Source: an uncultured candidate division Zixibacteria bacterium (GTDB taxonomy: Bacteria > Zixibacteria > MSB-5A5 > RBG-16-43-9). Taken from it: a stretch of DNA of 64,000 nucleotides. The translations under genes and the position numbers were made by a program. Below the pieces are notes generated by a model. That model saw only the letters and a program-made list of their open reading frames with translations, was not told the DNA's origin and did no database searches. Shown piece by piece: positions 10,029 through 59,408 of the stretch. Each line of letters begins with the position of its first letter. Position 1 is the first letter of the stretch. The stretch lies in NCBI GenBank assembly GCA_963713865.1, contig OY970208.1, forward strand, positions 2,080,001 through 2,144,000, in the 5' to 3' direction.

Positions 10029-10107
10029 AAATACGGTTTAAATGTTTAAGAGTTTATAAGTTTAAAAGAAAATAAACTTCTAAACTCATAAACTCCTAAA
10101 TTGTTTT
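10029..10107. repeat. Palindromic octamer-repeat element without cargo; same family as the tRNA-cluster spacers
   Basis: (GTTTAnnn)x4 ... (TAAACTnn)x4 inverted arms; GAGTTTATAAGTTTAAAAG (10050-10068) is identical to 52853-52871. Confidence 0.75.
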
Positions 10108-47966: not shown

Positions 47967-48392
47967 TTAGTCGATAACCTCAATTCCCATATTCCTTGCT
48001 GTTCCTTCTATCATTAACATGGCTTTTTCCAGACTACCAGCATTCAGGTCCGGCATTTTCAGTTCAGCAATCTCCTTGATCTGGGCTTTAGTTACTTTCC
48101 CTACTTTTAATCGATTAGGCTCTCCAGAACCTTTCTCAATCTTAGCTGCCTTTTTAAGCAATACTGCGGCTGGAGGTGTTTTGGTGATAAAGGTAAAAGT
48201 TTTATCCGCATAGATAGTGATAATAACAGGAATAATCAGCCCAGATTGACTCTGAGTTTTAGAATTAAAAGCTTTGCAGAATTCCATAGTATTCACACCG
48301 TGCGGACCTAAAGCTGGACCAACAGGCGGCGCAGGGTTGGCATTACCTGCCGGGATCTGAAGTTTAACTGTTGCAATAACTTTCTTTGCCAA
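47967..48392 (-). CDS. rplK: 50S ribosomal protein L11
   Basis: [34 protein letters not shown]. Confidence 0.99.
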
Positions 48393-48421
48393 TTTTTCTC
48401 CTTGATGTAATAAATTTTAAA

Positions 48422-48961
48422 CTATACTGGCTGAACCTGTAGAAAATCAAGCTCAACTGGAGTAGGACGACCGAAGATACTCACCATAACTTTAAGCTGT
48501 TTCCTCTCCATATTCACTTCGCTGACAAAACCTGAGAAATCGGTAAAGGGACCATCGATTACCTTAACCGGGTCACCAGCTTTAAAGGGAACCTCTTCAA
48601 AATCTCTGGTTTTCCCTCTTTCCGCCTGGCTCAAAACTCTTTTTACCTCATTTTCCCTAAGCGGAACCGGTTTCCCTCCGGTACCTACAAAACTTGTTAC
48701 CCCCGGAGTAGAGGTAACCAGATGCTGTGTTTCTTTGGTGAGCTCCATCTCAATCAGAATATAGCTGGGCAAAAACTTCTTTACGGTAGTGGTCCTTTTC
48801 CCCTGTTTCATCTCTAAAACAGTCTCAGTAGGAACTAAAACCCTACCCACTTTATCCTGTAACCCTCGATTCACCACCTCATTCTCCAGATATCTCTTTG
48901 CTTTTTGCTCATGACCGGAATAGGTATGAGCAACATACCATTTTTTCTCAGACTTTGTCAT
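48422..48961 (-). CDS. nusG: Transcription termination/antitermination factor NusG
   Basis: [26 protein letters not shown]. Confidence 0.99.
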
Positions 48962-48962
48962 A

Positions 48963-49148
48963 TTATCTGAATATGAAACTTATGAAAACTGCTAATACTT
49001 TATCTACTCCTCCGATAAAGAGGGCTAAAATTAAAGATAGCAGTATGACAATTACCGTGGAGCCCATTAACTCCTGTTTAGATGTCCAGGTAACTTTGGT
49101 CAGCTCTAACTTTACTTCTTTTAAAAAATTCTTAATCTTTTCGAACAT
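48963..49148 (-). CDS. secE: Preprotein translocase SecE
   Basis: FLKEV..EL.KVTW, one TM segment, between tRNA-Trp and nusG. Confidence 0.95.
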   Translation of the reverse strand: MFEKIKNFLKEVKLELTKVTWTSKQELMGSTVIVILLSLILALFIGGVDKVLAVFISFIFR

Positions 49149-49198
49149 TCTATTTAAAATTTTTAAAGGTTATAAAAACAAAAATATTTAACCCTTTA

Positions 49199-49272
49199 CA
49201 GGTCTGGAGGGATTCGAACCCCCATCATCCGGTTTTGGAGACCGGCGCTCTAGCCATTAGAGCTACAGACCT
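49199..49272 (-). tRNA. tRNA-Trp (CCA); 3' CCA not encoded
   Basis: Cloverleaf AGGTCTG...CCGGT-CTCCAAA-ACCGG...GTTCGAATC...CAGACCT-G. Confidence 0.96.
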
Positions 49273-49308
49273 GTGAAACTAAACTGTTTATTCTCCTTTT
49301 CTTCTAAA

Positions 49309-49461
49309 CTACCTAACCTCTTTATGCAAAGTATGCTTACGACAGAAGGGGCAATATTTTTTGAATTCCACCCTATCTGTATGTTTCTTTTTATTCTTCG
49401 TCTCAGTGTAATTCCTTTGTTTACACTCACCACAGGCTAAAGTAATAATTTCTCTTGGCAC
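49309..49461 (-). CDS. rpmG: 50S ribosomal protein L33 (zinc type); GTG start; absent from the ORF track
   Basis: Manual translation [18 protein letters not shown]...[17 protein letters not shown]. Confidence 0.96.
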
Positions 49462-49523
49462 GATTTTCTTTTATTTTTTAACGTTTGAACCTTTGTCCCG
49501 CCAAAGGCGGGATTAAACTTTTT

Positions 49524-50729
49524 TTACTCTATTATATCCGTTACTGCACCTGCTCCTACCGTCCTCCCACCCTCCCGTATGGCAAATCTTAACGTCTTCT
49601 CCATCGCTATTGGCCCTATCAACTCTACACTCATATTCACATTGTCTCCCGGCATCACCATCTCCACCCCTTCCGGCAACTTGATTATCCCGGTCACGTC
49701 TAAAGTCCGAAAATAAAACTGCGGACGATACCCGTTGAAAAAGGGCGTATGCCTGCCTCCCTCCTCTTTGGTCAATACGTATACCTCTGCTTTAAATTTG
49801 GTATGCGGGGTTATACTACCCGGAGCCGCTATCACCATCCCTCGCTCTAACTCGTCCTTCTCTATCCCCCTTAATAATATCCCGATGTTGTCTCCGGCCT
49901 GCGCCTCGTCTAATAACTTCCGAAACATCTCTACCCCTGTCACTACGGTCTTACGCGTCTCCTTCAATCCTACTCGCTCTACCTCATCCCCTACCTTCAC
50001 CCGTCCTCGCTCTACCCTGCCCGTCCCTACTGTCCCCCTGCCGGTTATACTGAAGACATCCTCTACCGGCAGCAAAAAAGGCTTGTCTACGTCTCGCTTG
50101 GGTAACGGTATGTAATTGTCTACCGCTTCCATTAACTCATAGACGCTCTTGAACTCCGGCGAATCCTTTACCTCCAGCTTGGCTGACTCGGTCATGGCCT
50201 TTAACGCACTACCCCGTATCACCGGTACCTCATCACCGGGAAATCCATACTTCTTCAGTAAATCCCTCACCTCTAACTCCACTAAATCCAATAACTCCGG
50301 ATCATCTACCATGTCTACCTTGTTCAAATATACGATGATATACGGCACTCCTACCTGACGCGCTAATAATATGTGCTCACGGGTCTGCGGCATCGGCCCA
50401 TCTGCTGCCGATACTACTAATATCGCCCCGTCCATCTGCGCCGCTCCAGTCACCATGTTCTTTACATAGTCCGCATGCCCTGGACAATCTACGTGCGCAT
50501 AATGCCGCTTGTCGGTCTCATACTCCGCATGATGTACGTTGATGGTTAACCCCCTGGCTTTCTCCTCCGGCGCATTGTCTATCTCCTCGTAACTCTTGGC
50601 CTGCGCTAATCCACGCCGCGATAATACCATGGTTATCGCCGCGGTCAACGTGGTCTTCCCGTGATCTACATGCCCTATCGTCCCAATGTTTACATGCGGC
50701 TTGGTCCGCACAAATTTAGCCTTGGCCAT
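49524..50729 (-). CDS. tuf: Elongation factor Tu (tRNA-operon copy)
   Basis: Same protein as 33613-34818 except one V/A difference. Confidence 0.99.
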
Positions 50730-50801
50730 CTTACTTTACCTCCAAACTTTTTGTTTTCTTTTTTTCTTTTTTAACTCTTTTAAAATTTATTACGCTTAAT
50801 G

Positions 50802-50874
50802 AGCCCACGACCAGGATTGAACTGGTGACCTCATCCTTACCAAGGATGTGCTCTACCGACTGAGCTACATGGGC
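50802..50874 (-). tRNA. tRNA-Thr (GGT)
   Basis: GCCCATG...CATCC-TTGGTAA-GGATG...GTTCAATC...CGTGGGC-T. Confidence 0.96.
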
Positions 50875-50979
50875 TAATAAATTTTTCTAATCCATCTAAC
50901 TTTTTATTTAACCGTTAACTATTATTTTATCAGTTCACTTAGGTTCAAATTTTAAAAAAATAAATAATATCTTCTCACT

Positions 50980-51014
50980 CAGTTGAGTGTAAAAATTATA
51001 AAAACACTCAACTG
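50980..51014. promoter_or_regulatory. Perfect 11-bp inverted repeat in the tRNA-Thr/tuf leader
   Basis: CAGTTGAGTGT-N13-ACACTCAACTG. Confidence 0.5.
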
Positions 51015-51032
51015 CTTATACGACAAAAATTT

Positions 51033-51060
51033 AATATAATATCACTATTTTTTTTGTCAA
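51033..51060 (-). promoter_or_regulatory. Putative sigma70 promoter for tRNA-Thr(GGT)-tuf-rpmG-secE-nusG
   Basis: TTGACA-N16-TATATT. Confidence 0.65.
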
Positions 51061-51070
51061 GCAAAATATT

Positions 51071-51619
51071 TTAAATTTTTGTATGTGGGAGGCTGATGTC
51101 TACCTTGTCACCATTTAACTTTACTATCCTGCCCGGACTACCAACCACTGTAGCATTATCAGGTATATCGTGCATAAATATGAAAGTGTTTGCCCCTATT
51201 TTTACATTATTCCCCACCCTGACCGACCCCAGGATAATAGCTCCGGTTCCAATTGTTACATTATATCCCAGGGTAGGATGCCTTTTACCTTTATGTTTAC
51301 CAGTTCCACCTAAAGTGACATTATGAAACATCACACAACTTCTCCCAATCTCAGCAGTCTCTCCTATGACAACTCCCATCCCGTGATCGATAAAAAAACC
51401 TTTGCCAATTTTTGCCCCGGGATGAATTTCCACTCCGGTCAGGAAGCGGGATATCTGCGAGATCAATCTTGGGAAAAAAGGGATTTTAATTTTCCAGACC
51501 AGATGACAGAATCTGTGAATCAAAATCGCATGCAATCCCGGATAAAGTAAAAATTCGATATTCCTAATTGCCGGATCATTCCGGTATATCGCTTTTATAT
51601 CCTCAAATATTGTAATCAT
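51071..51619 (-). CDS. cysE: Serine O-acetyltransferase
   Basis: DPA, YPGLHA, GVEIHPGA.IG..FFIDHGMGVVIGETA, TLGGTG...KRHPT. Confidence 0.96.
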   Translation of the reverse strand: MITIFEDIKAIYRNDPAIRNIEFLLYPGLHAILIHRFCHLVWKIKIPFFPRLISQISRFLTGVEIHPGAKIGKGFFIDHGMGVVIGETAEIGRSCVMFHNVTLGGTGKHKGKRHPTLGYNVTIGTGAIILGSVRVGNNVKIGANTFIFMHDIPDNATVVGSPGRIVKLNGDKVDISLPHTKI

Positions 51620-51655
51620 AGAATCCTTTTTAGATAAATTTAAGCTATACTATAT

Positions 51656-52570
51656 TTATTCTTTGAAAAGGTCAGTACTCAAGTATCTTTCAGCTGAATC
51701 TGGTATAACCACAATTACAAGTTTACCCTTTCCAGCCTTTTTAGCTACGGTGAGAGCAACAAATAGATTTGCCCCGGCGGATATACCGGCTAAAATCCCT
51801 TCCTCTTGGGCTAATCTTTTTGAGGTGGCAATAGCATCTTCATTCGAGACACAGATTATCTCGTCAACATTTTGTGGGTTATAGATTTTAGGAACAAAAC
51901 CAGCACCGATCCCCTGAATTTTATGTTTACCTGGTTTACCACCGGAGAGAACCGGTGAATCTTTAGGTTCCACTGCGATATTCTTACAGCCATATCTCTT
52001 TTTCAGAACCTCTCCTGCTCCGGTTATAGTTCCTCCTGTGCCAACTCCTGCTACAAAATAATCCAATTTCAAATCTCCTAAATCATCTATTATTTCCTTG
52101 GCTGTAGTCTCTCTATGGATTTTGGTATTAGCAGGATTCTCAAATTGTTGAGGTTGAAAATACCCTTCTTGTTCTGACATCTCTCTAGCTTTATCTACGG
52201 CTCCTTTCATTCCCAAAGCCCCATCCGTTAATACCAACTCAGCCCCTAAGAATTTCAACAAAGCCCTTCTTTCTAAACTCATCGTCTCTGGCATAGTGAA
52301 AACACACCTGTATCCTTTAACGGCTGATACCATCGCTAAAGCAATTCCGGTATTTCCGGACGTGGGCTCTACGATAGTCATTCCAGGTTTTAACTTACCC
52401 TTCTTTTCAGCGTCTTCAATCATTGAAAGCCCGATTCGGTCTTTAATCGAGCCAGCCGGATTAAAAAACTCTAATTTTGCTAAAAGAGTCGCATCTTCTG
52501 GACTGGTAAGCTTATCGATTTTAACTAACGGAGTCCGTCCAATAGTCTCCAGGATATTATTATAAATCAT
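51656..52570 (-). CDS. cysK: Cysteine synthase A
   Basis: [39 protein letters not shown]. Confidence 0.97.
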
Positions 52571-52674
52571 AAAATCCTACCTCTTAAGACAACTACTACT
52601 TTACGTAAGTTTTTGCTTTAGATGGAATTACAGATATGTTATCGCCAGATTGTTCAAAATCTTAACAGGGGAAT

Positions 52675-52755
52675 GAGAGTTCGTTCGTTTGATCGTTTGG
52701 AGTTTGAAGATTTTCGAACAAACTAACAAACTAACAAACTTCCAACTGTATTTCC
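52675..52755. repeat. Palindromic tRNA-spacer repeat, copy 3 (downstream of tRNA-Tyr)
   Basis: GAGAGTTCGTTCGTTT...TTTGGAGTTTGAAGATTTTCGAACAAACT...AACTGTATTTCC, highly similar to 53729-53814. Confidence 0.85.
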
Positions 52756-52838
52756 TGGAGAGGGGAGGATTCGAACCTCCGAAGGCGATAGCCGACAGAT
52801 TTACAGTCTGTTCCCTTTGGCCGCTCGGGAACCTCTCC
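52756..52838 (-). tRNA. tRNA-Tyr (GTA)
   Basis: GGAGAGG...ACAGA-CTGTAAA-TCTGT, long variable arm, GGTTCGAATCC...CCTCTCC-A. Confidence 0.96.
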
Positions 52839-52880
52839 AAAAAGCAGTTTAGGAGTTTATAAGTTTAAAAGTTTATACCC

Positions 52881-53258
52881 TCAATCTACTTTACGGAATG
52901 AATTTATAAGGGCTACCAGTAAGGTTAAAACCTCCTTACTTTTATTTATTAAAATATCCTAGCTAACTTTATCAAAATATTTTTGCCGAAAGGCTAATTC
53001 AAAATAGGTTATTGCTTCAGCTAAAGATCCTTTGGCAACAAACAGGAATTGAATAAATTCCTTTTTTGACTGCCTAAAACTACCTTCGGCAATATTAGCC
53101 GGAACTGAATTAATCGCTTTAAAAAGCTGAGGTATAAGTATGTTCGACTCCCTTTTAGGAAATTTCTCTGAAATCTGGTAAACAGTATCTGCCAGCTCAA
53201 CTGCTTTTTGCCAGACAATCAATTTTCTGAATCCAAAATCTTTTTCTTCTTTTTCCAA
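52881..53258 (-). pseudogene. Four-helix-bundle protein (23S rRNA IVS protein / Avd-like family) interrupted by an in-frame TAG at 52959-52961
   Basis: FRKLIVWQKA, FPK.E, SVPANIAEG, F.QFL.VAKGSL.E motifs; frame continues past TAG as DILINKSKEVLTLLVALINSFRKVD-stop. Confidence 0.8.
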
Positions 53259-53302
53259 CTCTTAAACCTTCTAAACCTCTTACACTTTTAAACTGTCTTT
53301 TT

Positions 53303-53364
53303 AGCGGGAGACGGTATTCGAACCCGCAACCAATCCAGATGGATGACTCTAGCCAATGGAGTTA
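53303..53364 (-). pseudogene. 5'-truncated copy of the anticodon-less tRNA-Gly-like element
   Basis: TAACTCCATTGGCTAGAGTC-ATCCATCTGGAT-TGGTTGCGGGTTCGAATACCGTCTCCCGCT; the 5' acceptor strand is replaced by GIY-YIG coding sequence. Confidence 0.8.
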
Positions 53365-53603
53365 ATGTTTCTCAACAATTTCTTGAAATCCTTACTTTTT
53401 ATATCCTTTAAAACCCTCTCTCTCTTTATCGCTTTCCCTCTGGTTGGAAATTTTTCCACATAAATCAACTCAAGAGGTACTCGTTTTTTTGTTGACTTAA
53501 TCCTTCCAGAATTGTGATACTGTAATCTCTGTTCAAGGTTCGAGGTTTGGCCAATATAAAGATTCCCATCCTTCTGGCTTTTTAAAACATAAACGTAATA
53601 CAT
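53349..53603 (-). CDS. Small standalone GIY-YIG nuclease family protein (84 aa)
   Basis: YYVYVL.S..DG.LYIGQT.NL..RL..HNSG...STK...P.ELIY.E.F...A..RE..LK. Confidence 0.92.
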   Translation of the reverse strand: MYYVYVLKSQKDGNLYIGQTSNLEQRLQYHNSGRIKSTKKRVPLELIYVEKFPTRGKAIKRERVLKDIKSKDFKKLLRNINSIG

Positions 53604-53654
53604 TTTAATTTCTCTTACCAACGAATAAACTGACAAACTTTAAACTGTATTCCC

Positions 53655-53728
53655 AGCGGGAGACGGGATTCGAACCCGCGACCAACAGCTTGGAAGGCTG
53701 TGACTCTAGCCAACTGAGTTACTCCCGC
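53655..53728 (-). tRNA. tRNA-Gly (TCC)
   Basis: GCGGGAG...ACAGC-CTTCCAA-GCTGT...GGTTCGAATCC...CTCCCGC-T. Confidence 0.96.
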
Positions 53729-53814
53729 AGAAAGAGAGTTTGTTCGTTTATTTGTTTGGAGTTTGAAGATTTTCGAACAAACTTACAAACTAATAAACTC
53801 CAAACTGTATTCCC
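53729..53814. repeat. Palindromic tRNA-spacer repeat, copy 2
   Basis: Inverted octamer arms (GTTTGTTC.../...GAACAAAC) ending AAACTGTATTCCC. Confidence 0.88.
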
Positions 53815-53883
53815 AGCGGGAGATGGGCTTCGAACCCGCGACCAATCCAGATGGATGACTCTAGCCAACTGAGTTACTCCCGC
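53815..53883 (-). ncRNA. Anticodon-less tRNA-Gly paralogue (69 nt)
   Basis: Acceptor stem and D arm identical to tRNA-Gly(TCC); 17-nt anticodon arm replaced by 12-nt ATCCA-TC-TGGAT; two substitutions in the T arm. Confidence 0.75.
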
Positions 53884-53971
53884 AGAAAGAGAGTTTGTTC
53901 GTTTGTCAGTTTGACCGTTTGGAGCTATTTCGGACAAACGTACAAACTAACAAACTCCAAACTGTATTCCC
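53884..53971. repeat. Palindromic tRNA-spacer repeat, copy 1
   Basis: Same ends as copy 2 (AGAAAGAGAGTTTGTTCGTTT...AAACTCCAAACTGTATTCCC); diverged centre. Confidence 0.88.
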
Positions 53972-54043
53972 AGCCGATGAGAGGGATCGAACCTCCAACC
54001 AACTGATTACAAATCAGTTGCTCTACCATTGAGCTACATCGGC
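53972..54043 (-). tRNA. tRNA-Thr (TGT)
   Basis: GCCGATG...ACTGA-TTTGTAA-TCAGT...GGTTCGATCCC...CATCGGC-T. Confidence 0.96.
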
Positions 54044-54064
54044 GAAATTTCTTTTATTATGTTA

Positions 54065-54092
54065 ATTATAATTTTTCAAAGAACAAAGCCAA
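54065..54092 (-). promoter_or_regulatory. Putative promoter of the tRNA cluster
   Basis: TTGGCT-N16-TATAAT about 20 nt upstream of tRNA-Thr(TGT). Confidence 0.6.
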
Positions 54093-54130
54093 AATCTATA
54101 CGAAATATTTTTGTTGTTAATACAATTTAT

Positions 54131-54961
54131 TTAAAGCTTCTCAGACCCTACCCCTGCTGGAGCTAAAACTTTGAATTCATCCCTTTCAATTAAGCTGATA
54201 GCTTCATTTGGACAAACCGCTCTACAAATTCCACACCCGTAACATCTTTGAGGGTCTATACTGCATTTTTCATTAAAAGCAGAAAAAAGTATAGCTCCAT
54301 ACTGGCAGAACTTCTTGCATTCCTTACACCCGGTGCATTTATCCCAGTCTGTGACACCCACGTATTCTGCTTTAAAGAACATGGGGATATTATAATTGAA
54401 GCTCATCTGATATGCTAAACAATCAGAATCGCAGTTGCAAAGCCCGCCGATAAAGGGAGTTTGGAAAGTCCAGACCGAGTGAACCAGCCCCTGCTCATCC
54501 ATCACTCTGAAAGCCTGCTTGGCCTGCTCCTGGCTCAGAACTTCGAAATCGCGAGTGAGGTCAGGAAATTCATCAAAAATTCCCTTCACCGGCGCACTGA
54601 TCCCAAAACAGTATCTCACTTCCTTGCCCAACGTAACTTTTCGGCACACACAGGGAAGCCTGACCACCACTTTCACCAGATCCACGATCTTCTCAATATC
54701 CTCAATCGAAACGATCTGCCCATAGTGAACCTTCTTCTGTTTTCTTACCACCAGATTCCTCATAAATCTCTTGACAAAATTAGGTCCTTTGCGAAGAGAA
54801 TCCATTTCAGAAAGTATTTTGGATGTATCCCCGGTAAACTCCCTGAAAAATTTCCGCATAAACTCATCGCTTTTCTTCTGGTGAAACAGCTCCTCAGAAT
54901 AGTTTTTCATCAGAAGATACCATTTCTTCCCCTCGCCGTGCTGATGACAGAACTCACACAT
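54131..54961 (-). CDS. 4Fe-4S dicluster-domain protein; start set at MCEFC (54961)
   Basis: C-terminal CTGCKECKKFC and CYGCGICRAVCP; extra CVCR and CNCDSDC; CAGGAG RBS. Confidence 0.85.
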   Translation of the reverse strand: MCEFCHQHGEGKKWYLLMKNYSEELFHQKKSDEFMRKFFREFTGDTSKILSEMDSLRKGPNFVKRFMRNLVVRKQKKVHYGQIVSIEDIEKIVDLVKVVVRLPCVCRKVTLGKEVRYCFGISAPVKGIFDEFPDLTRDFEVLSQEQAKQAFRVMDEQGLVHSVWTFQTPFIGGLCNCDSDCLAYQMSFNYNIPMFFKAEYVGVTDWDKCTGCKECKKFCQYGAILFSAFNEKCSIDPQRCYGCGICRAVCPNEAISLIERDEFKVLAPAGVGSEKL

Positions 54962-54996
54962 ATATTTCTCCTGGATTAAGTTGGAATCCAATCCCA

Positions 54997-55026
54997 GTGC
55001 TTGCCAGGTCCCCTGACCTGGCAAGT
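54997..55026. repeat. REP-like hairpin; second copy at about 61890-61918
   Basis: GTGCTTGCCAGGTC-CCCT-GACCTGGCAAG vs GTGCTTGCCAGGTCCCCTTGCCTGACAAG. Confidence 0.7.
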
Positions 55027-55063
55027 CAAGGGGTGGAAAAGTTTGACTAATCTCTTTCTCTTT

Positions 55064-56461
55064 TCAGGATCTCTTTTTCCACTTAGTCCCTCCAGAAGTA
55101 TCCTCAAGGATAATCCCTAAAGCTTCTATCTCTTTTCTGATTCTATCTGCCTCTTCCCATTTTTTATCTTTACGGGCCTGGTTTCTTTTCTGAATCAGCT
55201 CCACAACTTTTTCGTCTAAGGTAATCTCTTCCCTTTTTAAAATCCCTAAGACCGAATCAAATCTCTCTATTAGAGCTGATGTTTTTTCTGCATCCTGGCT
55301 GGAAAAATCACCCTCATCTATGAACTTGTTGATTTCCTTAACCAGATCGAAGATTTTCCCTAAGGCAGCAGAAACATTCAAATCATCATCCATCGCCTCC
55401 TCAAATCCTTTCTGAGCTTCTTTTAAAATTTCCTCAACCTCCGGATGACTTTTCTGGCTTTTTACATCTTTGAGCCTATCGATGAAATCGTACAATCTCT
55501 GCAGAGCATTTCTGGCTCCATCCAATCCTTCGAACGTGAAATTCAACTGCTGGCGATAATAAGTGGCTATAAGCAGATAGCGAATGGCCATAGGATTATA
55601 TCCTTTTTCCAGAAGATCCCTTAAGGTATAGAAATTCCCTAACGATTTTGACATCTTCCTGCCTTCAACTAAGAGATGTTCATTATGTATCCAGTAATTT
55701 ACGAATTTCTCACCGGTGACCCCTTCACTCTGGGCTATTTCGTTCTCATGATGAGGGAAAATCAGGTCCACTCCGCCGGTGTGAATATCAAAATGTTTCC
55801 CTAAGTATTTCATGCTCATAGCCGAGCATTCGATATGCCAGCCCGGACGACCCTTGCCGATCTCCGTCTCCCAGGATACCTCGCCATCCTCTTCATCCCA
55901 ACCTTTCCACAAAGCAAAATCCCCTACCTCTTCTTTTTCGTACGTATCCTTACTTATCCTGACACCAGCTTTCAAATCCTCCCTCTTCATTTTAGAGAGC
56001 TTTCCATAATCTTTAAATGAGGAGATCTTATAATAAATCGAACCTGCAAGCTGATAAGCATGTCCTTTTTCTAAAAGCTTTTTTACCAGCTCAACCATCT
56101 CCTTTATATGAATAGTAGCCTCTGAATAGATATCAGCCATCTCTATATTCATACTTTTAATATCCTGGAAGTAAGCTTTCTTATACCTTTTGGTATATTC
56201 GTTTAAAGGGAATTGTTTTTCTTGAGAACCTTTAATCGTCCTGTCATCCACGTCTGTCAGGTTAACCACCTGTTTGACCTCATACCCTTTATATTTTAAA
56301 TACCTTTTTACTAAATCAGCCACAACATAAGCCCTGAAATTGCCGATATGAGCAAAATCATAGACCGTAGGTCCGCATGAGTACATTTTAACTTTACCGG
56401 GTTCTATCGAAATAAATTCTTCTTTTTGACGGGTCAGGGTATTAAACAGCCTTAAGCTCAT
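55064..56461 (-). CDS. cysS: Cysteine--tRNA ligase
   Basis: CGPTVYD.AHIGN, GRPGWHIECSAM, DLIFPHHENE, KMSKS. Confidence 0.99.
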   Translation of the reverse strand: MSLRLFNTLTRQKEEFISIEPGKVKMYSCGPTVYDFAHIGNFRAYVVADLVKRYLKYKGYEVKQVVNLTDVDDRTIKGSQEKQFPLNEYTKRYKKAYFQDIKSMNIEMADIYSEATIHIKEMVELVKKLLEKGHAYQLAGSIYYKISSFKDYGKLSKMKREDLKAGVRISKDTYEKEEVGDFALWKGWDEEDGEVSWETEIGKGRPGWHIECSAMSMKYLGKHFDIHTGGVDLIFPHHENEIAQSEGVTGEKFVNYWIHNEHLLVEGRKMSKSLGNFYTLRDLLEKGYNPMAIRYLLIATYYRQQLNFTFEGLDGARNALQRLYDFIDRLKDVKSQKSHPEVEEILKEAQKGFEEAMDDDLNVSAALGKIFDLVKEINKFIDEGDFSSQDAEKTSALIERFDSVLGILKREEITLDEKVVELIQKRNQARKDKKWEEADRIRKEIEALGIILEDTSGGTKWKKRS

Positions 56462-57219: not shown

Positions 57220-57237
57220 TGTATTTACCTTGAGCTT

Positions 57238-58278
57238 TTAAACCTTTGAGCCTTTGAACCTTTTTATCGCCAATTTAGCAATTGTATCCACTAATTCAGT
57301 AAATTCAACCCCTAAAGCTTTAGCCGCTTTTGGAACTAAACTTGTACCTGTCATCCCCGGGAGGGTATTCACCTCCAGACAATAGAATTTATCGTCAGTT
57401 CCGTATCGAAAATCCACCCTGGCATAACCTTCGCACCCTAAAACTTTGAAAGCTCTGTATCCTGATTCCTGAATCTCGCTGGTCTTTTCTTTTGAAATCT
57501 CAGCCGGGCATATATAGCTACTTTTCCCTTTGGTATATTTGCATTCGTAGTCATAAATCCCATGCTCCGGTACTATCTCGACTACTGGAAGAGCAGAATC
57601 TCCTAAAATCCCTACAGTTAACTCCCTTCCCGGAATATATCTTTCAAAAAGAATTTTCTCCGCATAAATTTTTGCATCTTCGATCGCTTTTACTATATCT
57701 TTTTCTTCTTCAACTACAGTCAAACCTACAGTAGAACCCTGGTCATTGGGCTTCACTACCACCGGGAAGTTAAAGGAGCCTTTTATTTTATCAATAATTA
57801 TTTTTAAGTCTTTAGAATCATAGCTTTCCAAAAGGAACCATTCAGGAGTAAGAATCCCTTCTCTCTCAAACAATTTCTTAGACATTGCCTTGTCCATTGC
57901 TAAGGCGCTGGCTAAAACACCTGAGCCAGTATAAGGCATACCAGATAACTCTAAAAGAGCCTGGATTGTGCCATCTTCCCCCTGTCCACCGTGTAGAGCT
58001 AAGAATACTACTTCTACATCTGACAGGCTAAAAGATTCTATAGTTTTCAAAGCAAGTTTTTTCCCTTCAGATTGCAAGGCTTTTATATCCGGTGGTTCAG
58101 TTTTAACCCCTTCTGGTAAAAATCTTTTCTGACTCTCAGGTAATCTATTTCCTTTGACTGTATCAATTGCCATTACCTGATGACCAGCTTCCCTAAGCCC
58201 CTGGACAATAGCCTCACCTGAAGCTAAGGAGACATCTCTTTCCGCTGAAGTTCCTCCCATCAAAACCATTATTTTCAT
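57238..58278 (-). CDS. ddl: D-alanine--D-alanine ligase
   Basis: GGTSAERDVSL.SG, LHGG.GEDG, GST.G, YDYECKY, EVNTLPGMT..SL. Confidence 0.97.
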   Translation of the reverse strand: MKIMVLMGGTSAERDVSLASGEAIVQGLREAGHQVMAIDTVKGNRLPESQKRFLPEGVKTEPPDIKALQSEGKKLALKTIESFSLSDVEVVFLALHGGQGEDGTIQALLELSGMPYTGSGVLASALAMDKAMSKKLFEREGILTPEWFLLESYDSKDLKIIIDKIKGSFNFPVVVKPNDQGSTVGLTVVEEEKDIVKAIEDAKIYAEKILFERYIPGRELTVGILGDSALPVVEIVPEHGIYDYECKYTKGKSSYICPAEISKEKTSEIQESGYRAFKVLGCEGYARVDFRYGTDDKFYCLEVNTLPGMTGTSLVPKAAKALGVEFTELVDTIAKLAIKRFKGSKV

Positions 58279-58922
58279 TTTCCCGTTCCTGAAAAATTTT
58301 TATTTGACCTTTTCCTTACTATCCGGATAAGCCAGAAGATAAAAATTAAAACTACTGCAATAAAAATAAAACGGTTATATAAACTTAAAAATTTGTAAAG
58401 TTTTTGCCAGTTCTGATGTGTAAGAGCACCTAAACTGATTATAAATCCATTCCAGGCAAAAATACTTATCAGGCTATAGATGGTCATTTTCCATAATTCT
58501 ATTTTACCCAAACCAGCTGCTATCGCAATCCCGGACCTGACCCCGGCTATGAACCGACTAACTAATATAACCTTCCCCCCATATTTTCTAAACCAATTTT
58601 CTATCCTGTTAAGTTGAGTTCTGTTTAAAATCTTTCCTTTGTCTTTTTCGAAAAGCTTCCTTCCCTTTTTCATTCCAAGATAATAAAGTGCCAAAGCACC
58701 GCACAAGCTACCAGCACACGGAATAAAAAAAGCTAAAGGTAAACTCAGAACCTTGCTGGAAACTAAATATCCGCCCATGAAAGTAACTGTATCTCCAGGA
58801 TAAGGCGGGAAAATAGTCTCTATAATAGCGCTGATAAACAGAAAAAAATAGATCCACAAAACCCCATGAGAAGATATGAAATTAAGAAGCTCAGCTCCTC
58901 TACTATTAAAAAACTCTTCCAT
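58275..58922 (-). CDS. DedA family membrane protein
   Basis: E..FPP.PGD, G...G...LY..G, SRFIAGVR. Confidence 0.9.
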   Translation of the reverse strand: MEEFFNSRGAELLNFISSHGVLWIYFFLFISAIIETIFPPYPGDTVTFMGGYLVSSKVLSLPLAFFIPCAGSLCGALALYYLGMKKGRKLFEKDKGKILNRTQLNRIENWFRKYGGKVILVSRFIAGVRSGIAIAAGLGKIELWKMTIYSLISIFAWNGFIISLGALTHQNWQKLYKFLSLYNRFIFIAVVLIFIFWLIRIVRKRSNKNFSGTGK

Positions 58923-58925
58923 TGC

Positions 58926-59408
58926 CTATTGCCTGTTACCTTTTGCCTGTATTAAAACCACCGCATAAGCTCCAATCCCTTCTTTCTTTCCAGTAAACCC
59001 CATTCCTTCAGTTGTGGTGGCTTTGATCGAAACATTTTCCCTGGATATACTCAAGGAATCTGCGATATTTTTTCTCATCTTCTCAATATATTTAGCCATT
59101 TTCGGCTCTTCTGCCACAATCATCGAATCGATATGCAGAATCTCAGCTTTTCTAATCTTCTTTTTAATCAACATTAGAAGTTTTAAACTTGAAATACCTT
59201 TGAATTTCTTATCAGTATTTGGAAAATGTTTACCTAAATCACCTAAGGAGAGCGCCCCTAAGATAGCATTGCCAATAGAATGGGACAAAACATCCGCATC
59301 CGAATAACCCAAAAGCCCCTTTTTATAAGTAATCTTCACCCCACCTAAGATTAAATCCCTCCCCTTCACCAACCTGTGAGCATCATATCCAAATCCTATT
59401 TTTAGCAT
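58926..59408 (-). CDS. ispF: 2-C-methyl-D-erythritol 2,4-cyclodiphosphate synthase
   Basis: IGFGYDAH, SDADV..H, GDLG.HFP, IKATTTE.MGF.G. Confidence 0.95.
   Translation of the reverse strand: MLKIGFGYDAHRLVKGRDLILGGVKITYKKGLLGYSDADVLSHSIGNAILGALSLGDLGKHFPNTDKKFKGISSLKLLMLIKKKIRKAEILHIDSMIVAEEPKMAKYIEKMRKNIADSLSISRENVSIKATTTEGMGFTGKKEGIGAYAVVLIQAKGNRQ

Follow-up and report, generated by a model that had tools for sequence, protein, structure and literature searches.

Repeat-built hairpin spacers, a four-helix-bundle gene and a small GIY-YIG gene in a tRNA cluster of an uncultured Zixibacteria bacterium

Long stems processed by RNase III are known from rRNA operons, in which paired leader and trailer sequences enclose the stable RNAs of a common precursor or set them apart, and in the tRNA cluster of phage T4 a free-standing GIY-YIG homing endonuclease gene (SegB) is lodged among tRNA genes. 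Here we analyze a Thr-Gly-Tyr tRNA cluster located on the minus strand (positions 52671..54043) of a 64,000-nt stretch of DNA from an uncultured candidate division Zixibacteria bacterium (contig OY970208.1, hereafter G000:C1; the stretch, which starts at contig position 2,080,001, is referred to as the window). In this cluster, tRNA genes alternate with hairpin spacers built of tandem repeats and with two small genes, one encoding a four-helix-bundle protein (S23p, PF05635) and the other a single-domain GIY-YIG nuclease.

Several described systems resemble parts of this locus. According to the available text of Warrier et al. (2016, PMC4990558), Coxiella's intervening sequence (IVS) has a 28-bp terminal stem with three tandem GACAGAT units before the S23p open reading frame (ORF); RNase III cuts at the first GACAGAT unit, the number of units differs from strain to strain, and a Xanthomonas structure shows S23p as a homopentamer. 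RNase III also cuts a hairpin that (ATCTTTC)n forms in the 5' untranslated region (UTR) of Haemophilus influenzae hmw1A (Rapun-Araiz et al. 2025, PMC12721329). Heptamer arrays whose function is unknown have been described in Xanthomonas (GGGAATC) and Nostoc (GGGGAYT) by Rehm et al. (2015, PMC4692102), who also cite the cyanobacterial STRR heptamers; the term "S23" does not occur in the available part of their article. Ssn proteins (cd10448) are single-domain GIY-YIG nucleases acting on single-stranded DNA, whose genes are flanked by SRM/NTS hairpins (Chenal et al. 2025, PMC11893778), and the available part of that paper contains no occurrence of tRNA. In a literature search whose scope left subscription journals largely outside, only the Coxiella paper tied heptamers to an S23p ORF, and we found neither a general link between PF05635 and tandem arrays nor an account of such tRNA-operon spacers or of cassettes made of small GIY-YIG genes and altered tRNAs.

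We favor, with slightly better than even confidence, the interpretation that the cluster combines IVS-type hairpins built of repeats, which RNase III would cut in the precursor, with an independent GIY-YIG element that colonises tRNA genes. The left arm of each spacer runs from the tRNA 3' end as tandem 7-8-nt units opening with the box (G)GAAWACAGT, and the right arm consists of complementary units closing with ACTGnYTTYY at the 5' end of the next tRNA. The loop of one hairpin carries the usual cargo, a four-helix-bundle gene, here with a nonsense mutation. With each stem in the primary transcript cut by RNase III, the tRNAs would come apart and the loop RNA would be released, and the tRNAs would then be completed by RNase P, 3' trimming and CCA addition. 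The genome has one RNase III gene. The sequences show the anatomy of the cluster, the folds, the associations within the genome and across phyla and the turnover of cargo among relatives, whereas cleavage of the spacers, any benefit of it for tRNA maturation and the mode in which the elements move are what we infer from these patterns.

The layout of the cluster, as obtained with ARAGORN, Rfam, ORF translation and RNA folding, agrees with the initial annotation of this locus in the order, the coordinates and the minus-strand orientation of all parts. The first gene is tRNA-Thr(TGT) (53972..54043; ARAGORN; Rfam tRNA 75.1 bits), which has no encoded CCA. It is followed by spacer 1 (53884..53971), a full-length altered copy of tRNA-Gly that we call Gly* (53815..53883), spacer 2 of the same family (53729..53814), and the intact tRNA-Gly(TCC) (53655..53728; ARAGORN). 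At the other end of the cluster, tRNA-Tyr(GTA) (52755..52839; ARAGORN; Rfam 54.5 bits) is followed by a terminal spacer of the GTTTG family (52671..52754) and then by a cysK-like gene. In an Rfam scan of positions 48000-56000, tRNA was the sole credible model, two other matches being far below their gathering scores.

The sequence GGRAATACAGTT occurs exactly four times, directly after Thr, Gly*, Gly and Tyr, as the initial annotation had noticed. When one mismatch was allowed, 6 matches were found compared with 0.72 expected, a number reached in none of 100 shuffles. In spacer 1, the left arm is built of GTTTGNNN units and the right arm of NNNCAAAC units; the spacer opens with a GGGAATACAGT box and closes with CTCTTTCT. 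Both spacer 1 (88 nt, -32.9 kcal/mol, z -5.7) and spacer 2 (86 nt, -22.1 kcal/mol, z -4.0) are predicted to be paired from the first to the last nucleotide. The initial description of the spacers as hairpins is supported; the terminal spacer, which is 88% identical to spacer 2, forms a weaker one (z -1.7), and equally good folding was seen in 16 of 200 shuffles. Spacers 1 and 2 are 86% identical.

The hairpin with cargo occupies the 463-nt stretch between a truncated Gly* and tRNA-Tyr. Its left arm (53259..53302), composed of AAAAAGACAGT and GTTTAAGAG-type units, pairs in both the minimum free energy and the centroid folds with the right arm (52840..52877), which consists of AAACTT-type units and ACTGCTTTTT and reaches the 5' end of tRNA-Tyr. 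That these arms can pair had been predicted, and in the fold of the whole stretch a terminal stem from nucleotide 2 to the last nucleotide encloses the four-helix ORF (z -3.1). The gene between the arms (52881..53258; S23p / PF05635 / TIGR02436) matches PF05635 with 103.2 bits (cut-off 33.8), and a four-helix profile matches the Protein Data Bank (PDB) entries 2GSC and 2RLD. The initial annotation needs correction in one point: an in-frame TAG at 52959-52961 leaves 99 aa instead of about 125. The ortholog in the same genus is intact and has TAT (Tyr) at this codon. The window gene is probably a recent pseudogene. In-frame stops were also seen elsewhere among the small cassette genes of the genome, amounting to 3 of 15 genes (2 of 7 four-helix and 1 of 8 small GIY-YIG genes); the other two are located at G000:C1 271848-272210 and 2702288-2702497. 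All three stops are TAG, though they probably reflect decay.

The window is a local sample of a larger class. The genome, which is 94% complete and whose source contig is a single sequence of 2.72 Mb with 49 tRNA genes, contains seven PF05635 genes, one paralog scoring 125 bits on TIGR02436. All seven are bracketed by inverted arrays, and the unit family differs from gene to gene; for six genes both arrays could be read from the flanking sequence, and the seventh pair was found by array pairing, its far arm lying about 390 nt past the stop codon. We searched for four-helix relatives with an alignment of five of these proteins, keeping one genome per species; this gave 582 relatives, and the best 80 loci, from many phyla, were used. 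Both flanks were available for 76 loci; at 39 of them the upstream and downstream sides share an inverted repeat that scores at least 30, and at 48 z was at least 4. An array of period 6-9 was located within 200 nt of the ORF at 70 of the 80 loci (upstream at 53, downstream at 49 and on both sides at 32), compared with 5 of 80 GIY-YIG control loci. Upstream arrays were mainly G-rich (46 to 7) and downstream arrays mainly C-rich (42 to 12). A side observation concerns eight loci of Flavobacteriia and other Bacteroidota (L076, L080, L087, L098, L104, L133, L138, L140), in which the four-helix cassette is found at one recurrent site, after a gene ending in ...CGCGESF and before a gene starting with MSKYTEE... 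This site looks like the sufA-sufB junction, the names being read from the peptides.

The same construction is seen at tRNA genes throughout the genome. Many of the 49 tRNAs have a (G)GAAATACAGT-like box at their 3' end followed by tandem 7-8-nt units, and many have complementary units and then ACTGnYTTYY immediately 5'. The 3' box is present at 18 of the 49 tRNAs and the 5' box at 17, whereas the chance at random genome positions is 1.5% and 4.6%, respectively. The unit families at these flanks are unrelated (GTTTGGAG, GTGATTAG, GGTTCATA, GACTTTAG, GTTTAAGAG, GTGGTCAG). Where a 3' array and a 5' complement co-occur, the entire spacer between two tRNAs is one hairpin. All seven same-strand spacers of 40-260 nt between tRNAs, together with the two sub-spacers of the window, have fold z values from -2.0 to -8.3 and leave 0-14 end bases unpaired. 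Complementary arrays also enclose 5S rRNA and tRNA-Glu(TTC). In the rRNA operon (L061, G000:C1 1308500-1319500), the 5S gene lies between complementary CTATGAAC and GGTTCATAG arrays. This operon further contains a stretch of about 800 nt that looks protein-coding between tRNA-Ile and tRNA-Ala, and its 23S match spans 3050 nt compared with a model of 2925 positions, so a short insertion is possible.

We then considered all tandem arrays in a whole-genome scan with Tandem Repeats Finder (TRF; period 7 or 8, score at least 40), using a block-shuffled genome as control. There were 233 arrays in the genome and 9 in the shuffled copy, and a complexity filter left 199 arrays in 85 canonical units. 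The enrichment at tRNAs that the initial annotation proposed to test is evident genome-wide: compared with an expectation of 0.56, 34 of the 199 arrays have a tRNA no more than 60 nt away, and 27 of the 49 tRNAs are touched in this way. A strict lag-7/8 periodicity score proved too stringent at tRNA flanks (9 of 49), and the TRF-based counts were used instead. According to crude ORF calls (2276 ORFs), 35 arrays are inside ORFs and 164 outside. Most of the latter (103 of 164) lie between genes of the same direction and have their G-rich strand in the sense orientation; the remaining classes comprise 30, 18 and 13 arrays. These 103 arrays begin a median of 8 nt (first quartile 0.5) past the upstream stop codon, whereas the median distance to the next start is 110 nt. 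Hairpins do abut tRNA ends with small genes in or beside them, but the tie to tRNA 3' ends that had been suggested is not supported, as arrays also follow stop codons, complements precede tRNA 5' ends and only the 34 arrays mentioned are close to a tRNA.

The units are C-poor (25% G and 9% C). AG is contained in the units of 172 of the 199 arrays (127 expected) and AGT in 97 (47 expected), and units such as AGTTTGG, AGTGATT, AGTAGAC and AGGTTCAA have no GGG runs. The idea that the units carry stop triplets was dropped, as 143 of the 199 arrays contain one compared with 139 expected from composition. Two arrays in the window (57227-57263 and 58921-58948) fill the entire intergenic gap from the stop codon to the next ATG, their AGG-containing units occupying the position of a ribosome-binding site. 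A same-genus genome of about 89% nucleotide identity retains both arrays at the orthologous sites, but with changed units and, in one array, an extra unit. Two further observations on repeats may be mentioned. At window positions 10036-10100 (G000:C1 2090036-2090100), paired GTTTAAAA / TAAACTCC arrays make up a short hairpin with no tRNA nearby. Hairpins of the type TCCCGCC-loop-GGCGGGA occur 50 times in the genome compared with 1-3 in shuffles, several of them in altered tRNA copies or right after arrays.

Several results weigh against the RNase III interpretation. Compensatory changes were found in none of 16 consensus pairs among 14 spacers of the GTTTG family; these pairs lie in the invariant GTTTG/CAAAC cores, and the three variable bases between the cores do not co-vary. 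Among 39 stems of four-helix elements from other phyla, mismatches of the wobble type were symmetric (47 would be G.U on the sense strand and 45 on the antisense strand), so they bear no mark of selection on a one-strand RNA. In only six of nine spacers was the fold of the sense strand better than that of the antisense strand. An inverted partner scoring at least 30 within 1.6 kb was present for only 28 of the 199 arrays; since the majority are solo, hairpin formation cannot explain why the arrays exist. In addition, one relative in the order (L034) has a compact cluster with 19- and 43-nt spacers and no hairpins, implying that the spacer hairpins are dispensable. The constraint tests therefore leave an RNA stem uncontradicted, yet give no sign of selection acting on it. 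A search of RNA runs for positions 52300-54400 gave no match.

The symmetric mismatches and the lack of compensatory changes are also what might be seen if arrays and hairpins were DNA-level elements, made and spread by inverted duplication, by slippage or by insertion aided by the four-helix protein, with the RNA stem as a by-product. Other features fit this explanation as well: the arms of each element are of its own unit family, as if the right arm had been copied from the left; sites are filled, empty or replaced between congeners; unit number differs at orthologous sites of same-genus genomes; and in H. influenzae, according to the available text, the change in repeat number depends on the hairpin and RNase III (PMC12721329). 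On the other hand, we found the arrays associated with no transposase, integrase or reverse transcriptase, though no search aimed at integrase genes was made in the window. The genome, as far as it is complete, has no RVT_1 match, and a link to diversity-generating retroelements was accordingly not upheld. Eight Y1_Tnp (IS200/RAYT-like) genes were detected, including those at G000:C1 801515, 2205516, 1824991 and 1449650. The inspected flanks of these genes contain no 7-8-nt arrays (0 of 8; the nearest ones are about 0.4-1.1 kb off at three genes), and a link to repetitive extragenic palindromes (REP) and RAYT was rejected, as the repeats visible beside these genes, at several of them on both sides, are their own G+C-rich palindromes, a separate REP-like system. 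A DNA-level origin also has to face the orientation of the arrays with transcription and their anchoring to the upstream stop codon. Nor are the arm families of the four-helix genes abundant array families, a possibility that we ruled out: they have a mean of 7.8 distant relatives compared with 15.5 for other arrays. On balance, we consider this explanation rather unlikely.

The GIY-YIG part of the cluster differs from the hairpin elements. Between tRNA-Gly and the GIY-YIG start codon there is a solo left arm (53612..53654; the box and GTTT units, without a right arm), which nhmmer aligned to positions 1-43 of the spacer profile. The GIY-YIG gene (53349..53603; ATG at 53603, TAG at 53351-53349; PF01541 69.5 bits) encodes 84 aa, all of which is GIY-YIG domain (PF01541 over positions 1-74), and the nearest solved structures are the UPF0213 proteins 1YWL and 1ZG2 of 96 and 107 aa. 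Its last codons lie in the D-arm, and its TAG stop in the D-loop, of the truncated Gly* (about 53303..53358), which extends from the D-loop to the 3' end, lacks the acceptor 5' strand, carries the mini-hairpin ATCCATCTGGAT and matches Gly positions 44-74 with 93.5% identity in BLAST. The same truncated structure recurs in relatives L033, L035 and L152. The full-length Gly* scores 39.3 bits with the Rfam tRNA model (gathering score 29), compared with 68.1 for the intact Gly; it folds into a cloverleaf in which the anticodon arm is replaced by the same 4-bp mini-hairpin, with one mismatch in the T stem, and BLAST aligned it to Gly positions 1-28 and 44-74.

Four further cassettes of a tRNA and GIY-YIG were counted elsewhere in the genome, which has eight small GIY-YIG genes and one further PF01541 match in a 614-aa ORF taken to be UvrC. 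Besides the window cassette (GIY-YIG and Gly* after tRNA-Gly), one follows tRNA-Ser(GCT) and consists of GIY-YIG and a truncated Ser* with a hairpin, and another follows tRNA-Ala(TGC) in the rRNA operon (L061), before 23S, and consists of GIY-YIG and a truncated Ala* without an anticodon arm. After tRNA-Met, there are three tandem [GIY-YIG + Met*] units, in which two short G+C hairpins replace cloverleaf parts. In detail, this locus (L063, G000:C1 330300-332000) has three identical copies after tRNA-Met(CAT) with a period of 344 nt, and the GIY-YIG ORF runs through the 5' half of the altered tRNA-Met to stop at a TAA in the anticodon loop. A BLAST search with all tRNAs detected 22 fragments outside annotated genes, 12 of them at GIY-YIG cassettes.

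Among relatives, a single-protein search confirmed GIY-YIG genes in 252 of 511 stretches, and the best 80 loci, many of them from candidate phyla, were used. A same-strand tRNA abuts the ORF at 43 of these 80 loci (both sides 3, neither side 37). An upstream tRNA ends within 150 nt of the ORF at 14 loci, of which 9 have a downstream tRNA fragment; in 8 upstream-tRNA loci that we inspected, several downstream copies have a short G+C-rich hairpin in place of part of the cloverleaf. The closest public locus has the Thr-Gly-GIY-Gly* layout of the window. Such a layout would arise simply if the element inserted within the 5' part of a tRNA gene and this gene became duplicated, after which either copy may decay. 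The four-helix gene belongs to the hairpin and the GIY-YIG gene to the tRNA gene itself, and the single cassette system proposed in the initial annotation is not one system: four-helix genes go with arrays (70 of 80 loci), and GIY-YIG genes go with tRNAs and hardly with arrays (5 of 80). The GIY-YIG gene probably represents a class of small nuclease genes that colonise and duplicate tRNA genes, one copy staying intact (Gly) and the other decaying as a small hairpin replaces part of its cloverleaf (Gly*); the full-length Gly* and spacer 1 would have arisen by a further local duplication. Whether this gene belongs to Ssn was also considered. The published SRM consensus, searched as a regular expression, has 4 matches in the genome compared with 4-7 in shuffles, and the 500 nt around the small GIY-YIG genes contain no match; being neither enriched nor near the genes, it gave no ground for filing the window gene as an Ssn member.

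The tRNA-bounded position of the GIY-YIG gene bears on the proposal of the initial annotation that RNase P and the 3' tRNA-processing enzymes free both the spacers and the small-gene mRNAs, the tRNAs acting as punctuation. The GIY-YIG ORF indeed lies between tRNA-Gly and the tRNA-like Gly*, at 32 of the 80 loci the distance from the GIY-YIG stop to the start of an intact same-strand tRNA is -86 to +103 nt, and 14 of 80 have the upstream tRNA end mentioned above. Moreover, CCA is present at or directly after the 3' end of only 13 of the 49 tRNAs, so that endonucleolytic 3' processing is to be expected. By the usual rules, however, the truncated Gly* without an acceptor 5' strand is no substrate for RNase P. 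Furthermore, the four-helix genes are mostly distant from tRNAs, five of seven in this genome, and in other phyla they lie between ordinary genes; tRNA processing is thus not their general release route. For the long stem, RNase III is the expected cutter, and tRNA-punctuated release is plausible for the GIY-YIG mRNA only. As an account of the cluster, we regard this proposal, too, as rather unlikely.

To examine how the cluster varies, we searched 31 genomes of the order with the Thr(TGT) gene; 22 of them had a match. As the initial annotation expected, cargo varies between relatives. In the same genus (L031), the order is Thr, spacer, Gly, left arm, a GIY-YIG gene that has lost its 3' end and has no Gly* copies, an intact four-helix gene, right arm and Tyr. 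L036 has this layout with a different junction, and L037 has no GIY-YIG gene. Genus g3 (L033, L035) has the window layout, with the exception that a hairpin of another family follows Gly* and the full Gly* is decayed. In family f4 (L048-L050), the order is Thr, arms with four-helix gene, Tyr, hairpin and Gly, and the arms are of the GTTTAAGAG family of the window; L046, from the same genus as L048, has at the cassette site a 79-nt hairpin without ORF and of a different unit family. The four-helix cassette upstream of tRNA-Tyr is common to two families of the order and is therefore old, and comparison of the layouts shows gain, loss or replacement of hairpins and cargo among congeners. The same-genus genome G001 has neither Gly* nor its spacer, and spacer 1 with Gly* in the window is thus a local duplication.

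Contigs from four sediment runs, collected at 85% likeness, represent related strains, and no clean gain or loss of a cassette could be read from them. Two skips in these contigs (53603->53776 and 53603->53941) are best read as alignment ambiguity between the near-identical left arms, and the letters between the skip points match the longer arm of L031. Skips of about 1.15-1.2 kb, from the Tyr end to the Thr end, were assigned to other organisms. In the G+C-richer sister family f2 (L038-L045, L047, L053), GGAC-type heptamer arrays such as GGCGGACGGCGGAC precede a solitary tRNA-Thr(TGT), which in most loci is followed by a plain terminator-like hairpin.

These comparisons also allow one to judge whether the cluster is functionless debris of a tandemly duplicated unit of tRNA-Gly and spacer plus slippage-prone simple repeats. 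What the initial annotation had listed as speaking against its own view was found in part, namely local duplication (spacers 1 and 2 being 86% alike) and the absence of compensatory changes (0 of 16), but cargo does vary between relatives. The missing Gly* and spacer in G001, the broken four-helix gene of the window, the decay of Gly* copies in genus g3 and the faster divergence of arrays than of flanking genes all suit neutral decay. Debris would not be expected, in contrast, to yield 233 arrays where the shuffled genome has 9, to take fixed positions at stop codons and tRNA ends, to be kept at orthologous sites of the congener of about 89% identity, or to show the same architecture across the order, with four-helix genes across many phyla. 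We therefore judge this explanation highly improbable.

A more speculative reading is that the four-helix (S23p) proteins, five-part rings according to relatives, read or propagate the 7-8-nt arrays, with about one unit per subunit, so that RNase III-cleavable boundaries would be written into the transcripts. If this were true, rRNA intervening sequences, the Xanthomonas and cyanobacterial heptamers and the arrays at stop codons and at the ends of tRNAs would all belong to a single system of protein and repeats. We hold this idea to be very doubtful: there are only 7 four-helix genes for 85 unit families, and the arm families are not the populous ones.

Two observations lie outside these subjects. 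Isolated 3' fragments of tRNA-Glu(CTC), tRNA-Pro(GGG) and tRNA-Leu(CAA), separated from the corresponding genes by as much as 12 kb or more, are present at G000:C1 2664289, 2666249, 2674524, 1898961 and 1095960; fragments of this kind are usually left by elements that integrate at tRNA genes. The cumulative GC skew is lowest near 2.68 Mb and highest near 1.90 Mb, which, if the assembly is right, implies very unequal replication arms of about 1.94 and 0.78 Mb.

For decades, 23S rRNA intervening sequences, the sizeable S23p / PF05635 family and the heptamer repeats that crowd some genomes have gone unexplained. When the locus, the genome and its relatives are taken together, all three appear as one design, which also builds tRNA-operon spacers and marks gene ends across one bacterial order. 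In addition, widespread tiny GIY-YIG nuclease genes live on tRNA genes and leave altered tRNA copies behind, which bears on tRNA annotation and on the understanding of these nucleases.

Compared with the known systems, as far as the cited ones are described in the available text, the window GIY-YIG gene resembles Ssn in encoding a GIY-YIG-only protein of about 90 aa and in being accompanied by short hairpin motifs, but the hairpins here sit inside altered tRNA copies; compared with SegB, its 84-aa protein has no DNA-binding domain. The window stems differ from leader-trailer stems of rRNA operons in being made of simple tandem units with fast turnover. With the heptamer repeats of Xanthomonas and Nostoc and the STRR sequences, the genome shares numerous intergenic tandem arrays (7-nt units there, 7-8-nt here, 164 of them intergenic), often in convergent pairs capable of forming stems and variable in length and sequence between close relatives. 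The Xanthomonas and Nostoc arrays, however, belong to one or a few G-run families read as quadruplex formers, whereas the 85 canonical units here lack G runs, are C-poor and are anchored to stop codons and tRNA ends. The hmw1A hairpin is likewise a transcribed tandem 7-nt array that forms a long RNase III-processed stem with a complementary arm; it is one phase-variable locus upstream of an adhesin gene, whereas the arrays described here are found genome-wide at gene and tRNA ends in many unit families.

The ORF-bearing 23S IVS, known from helix 45 of Coxiella burnetii and from Leptospira, offers the most extensive comparison. The window element lies between a truncated Gly* and tRNA-Tyr and not in helix 25 or 45 of 23S, the 23S gene of this genome being located elsewhere. 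Versions without ORF serve here as ordinary tRNA spacers, the units are of 8 nt, arrays also occur singly after protein genes, and cutting by RNase III is proposed by analogy. In both cases, a PF05635 ORF prone to decay lies in the loop of a long inverted-repeat stem within a stable-RNA transcription unit, and the 5' arm contains tandem repeat units, heptamers in the IVS, whose number varies between strains. The relation to 23S intervening sequences noted in the initial annotation holds, as the RNase III-cut stem of the Coxiella IVS contains heptamer repeats (PMC4990558).

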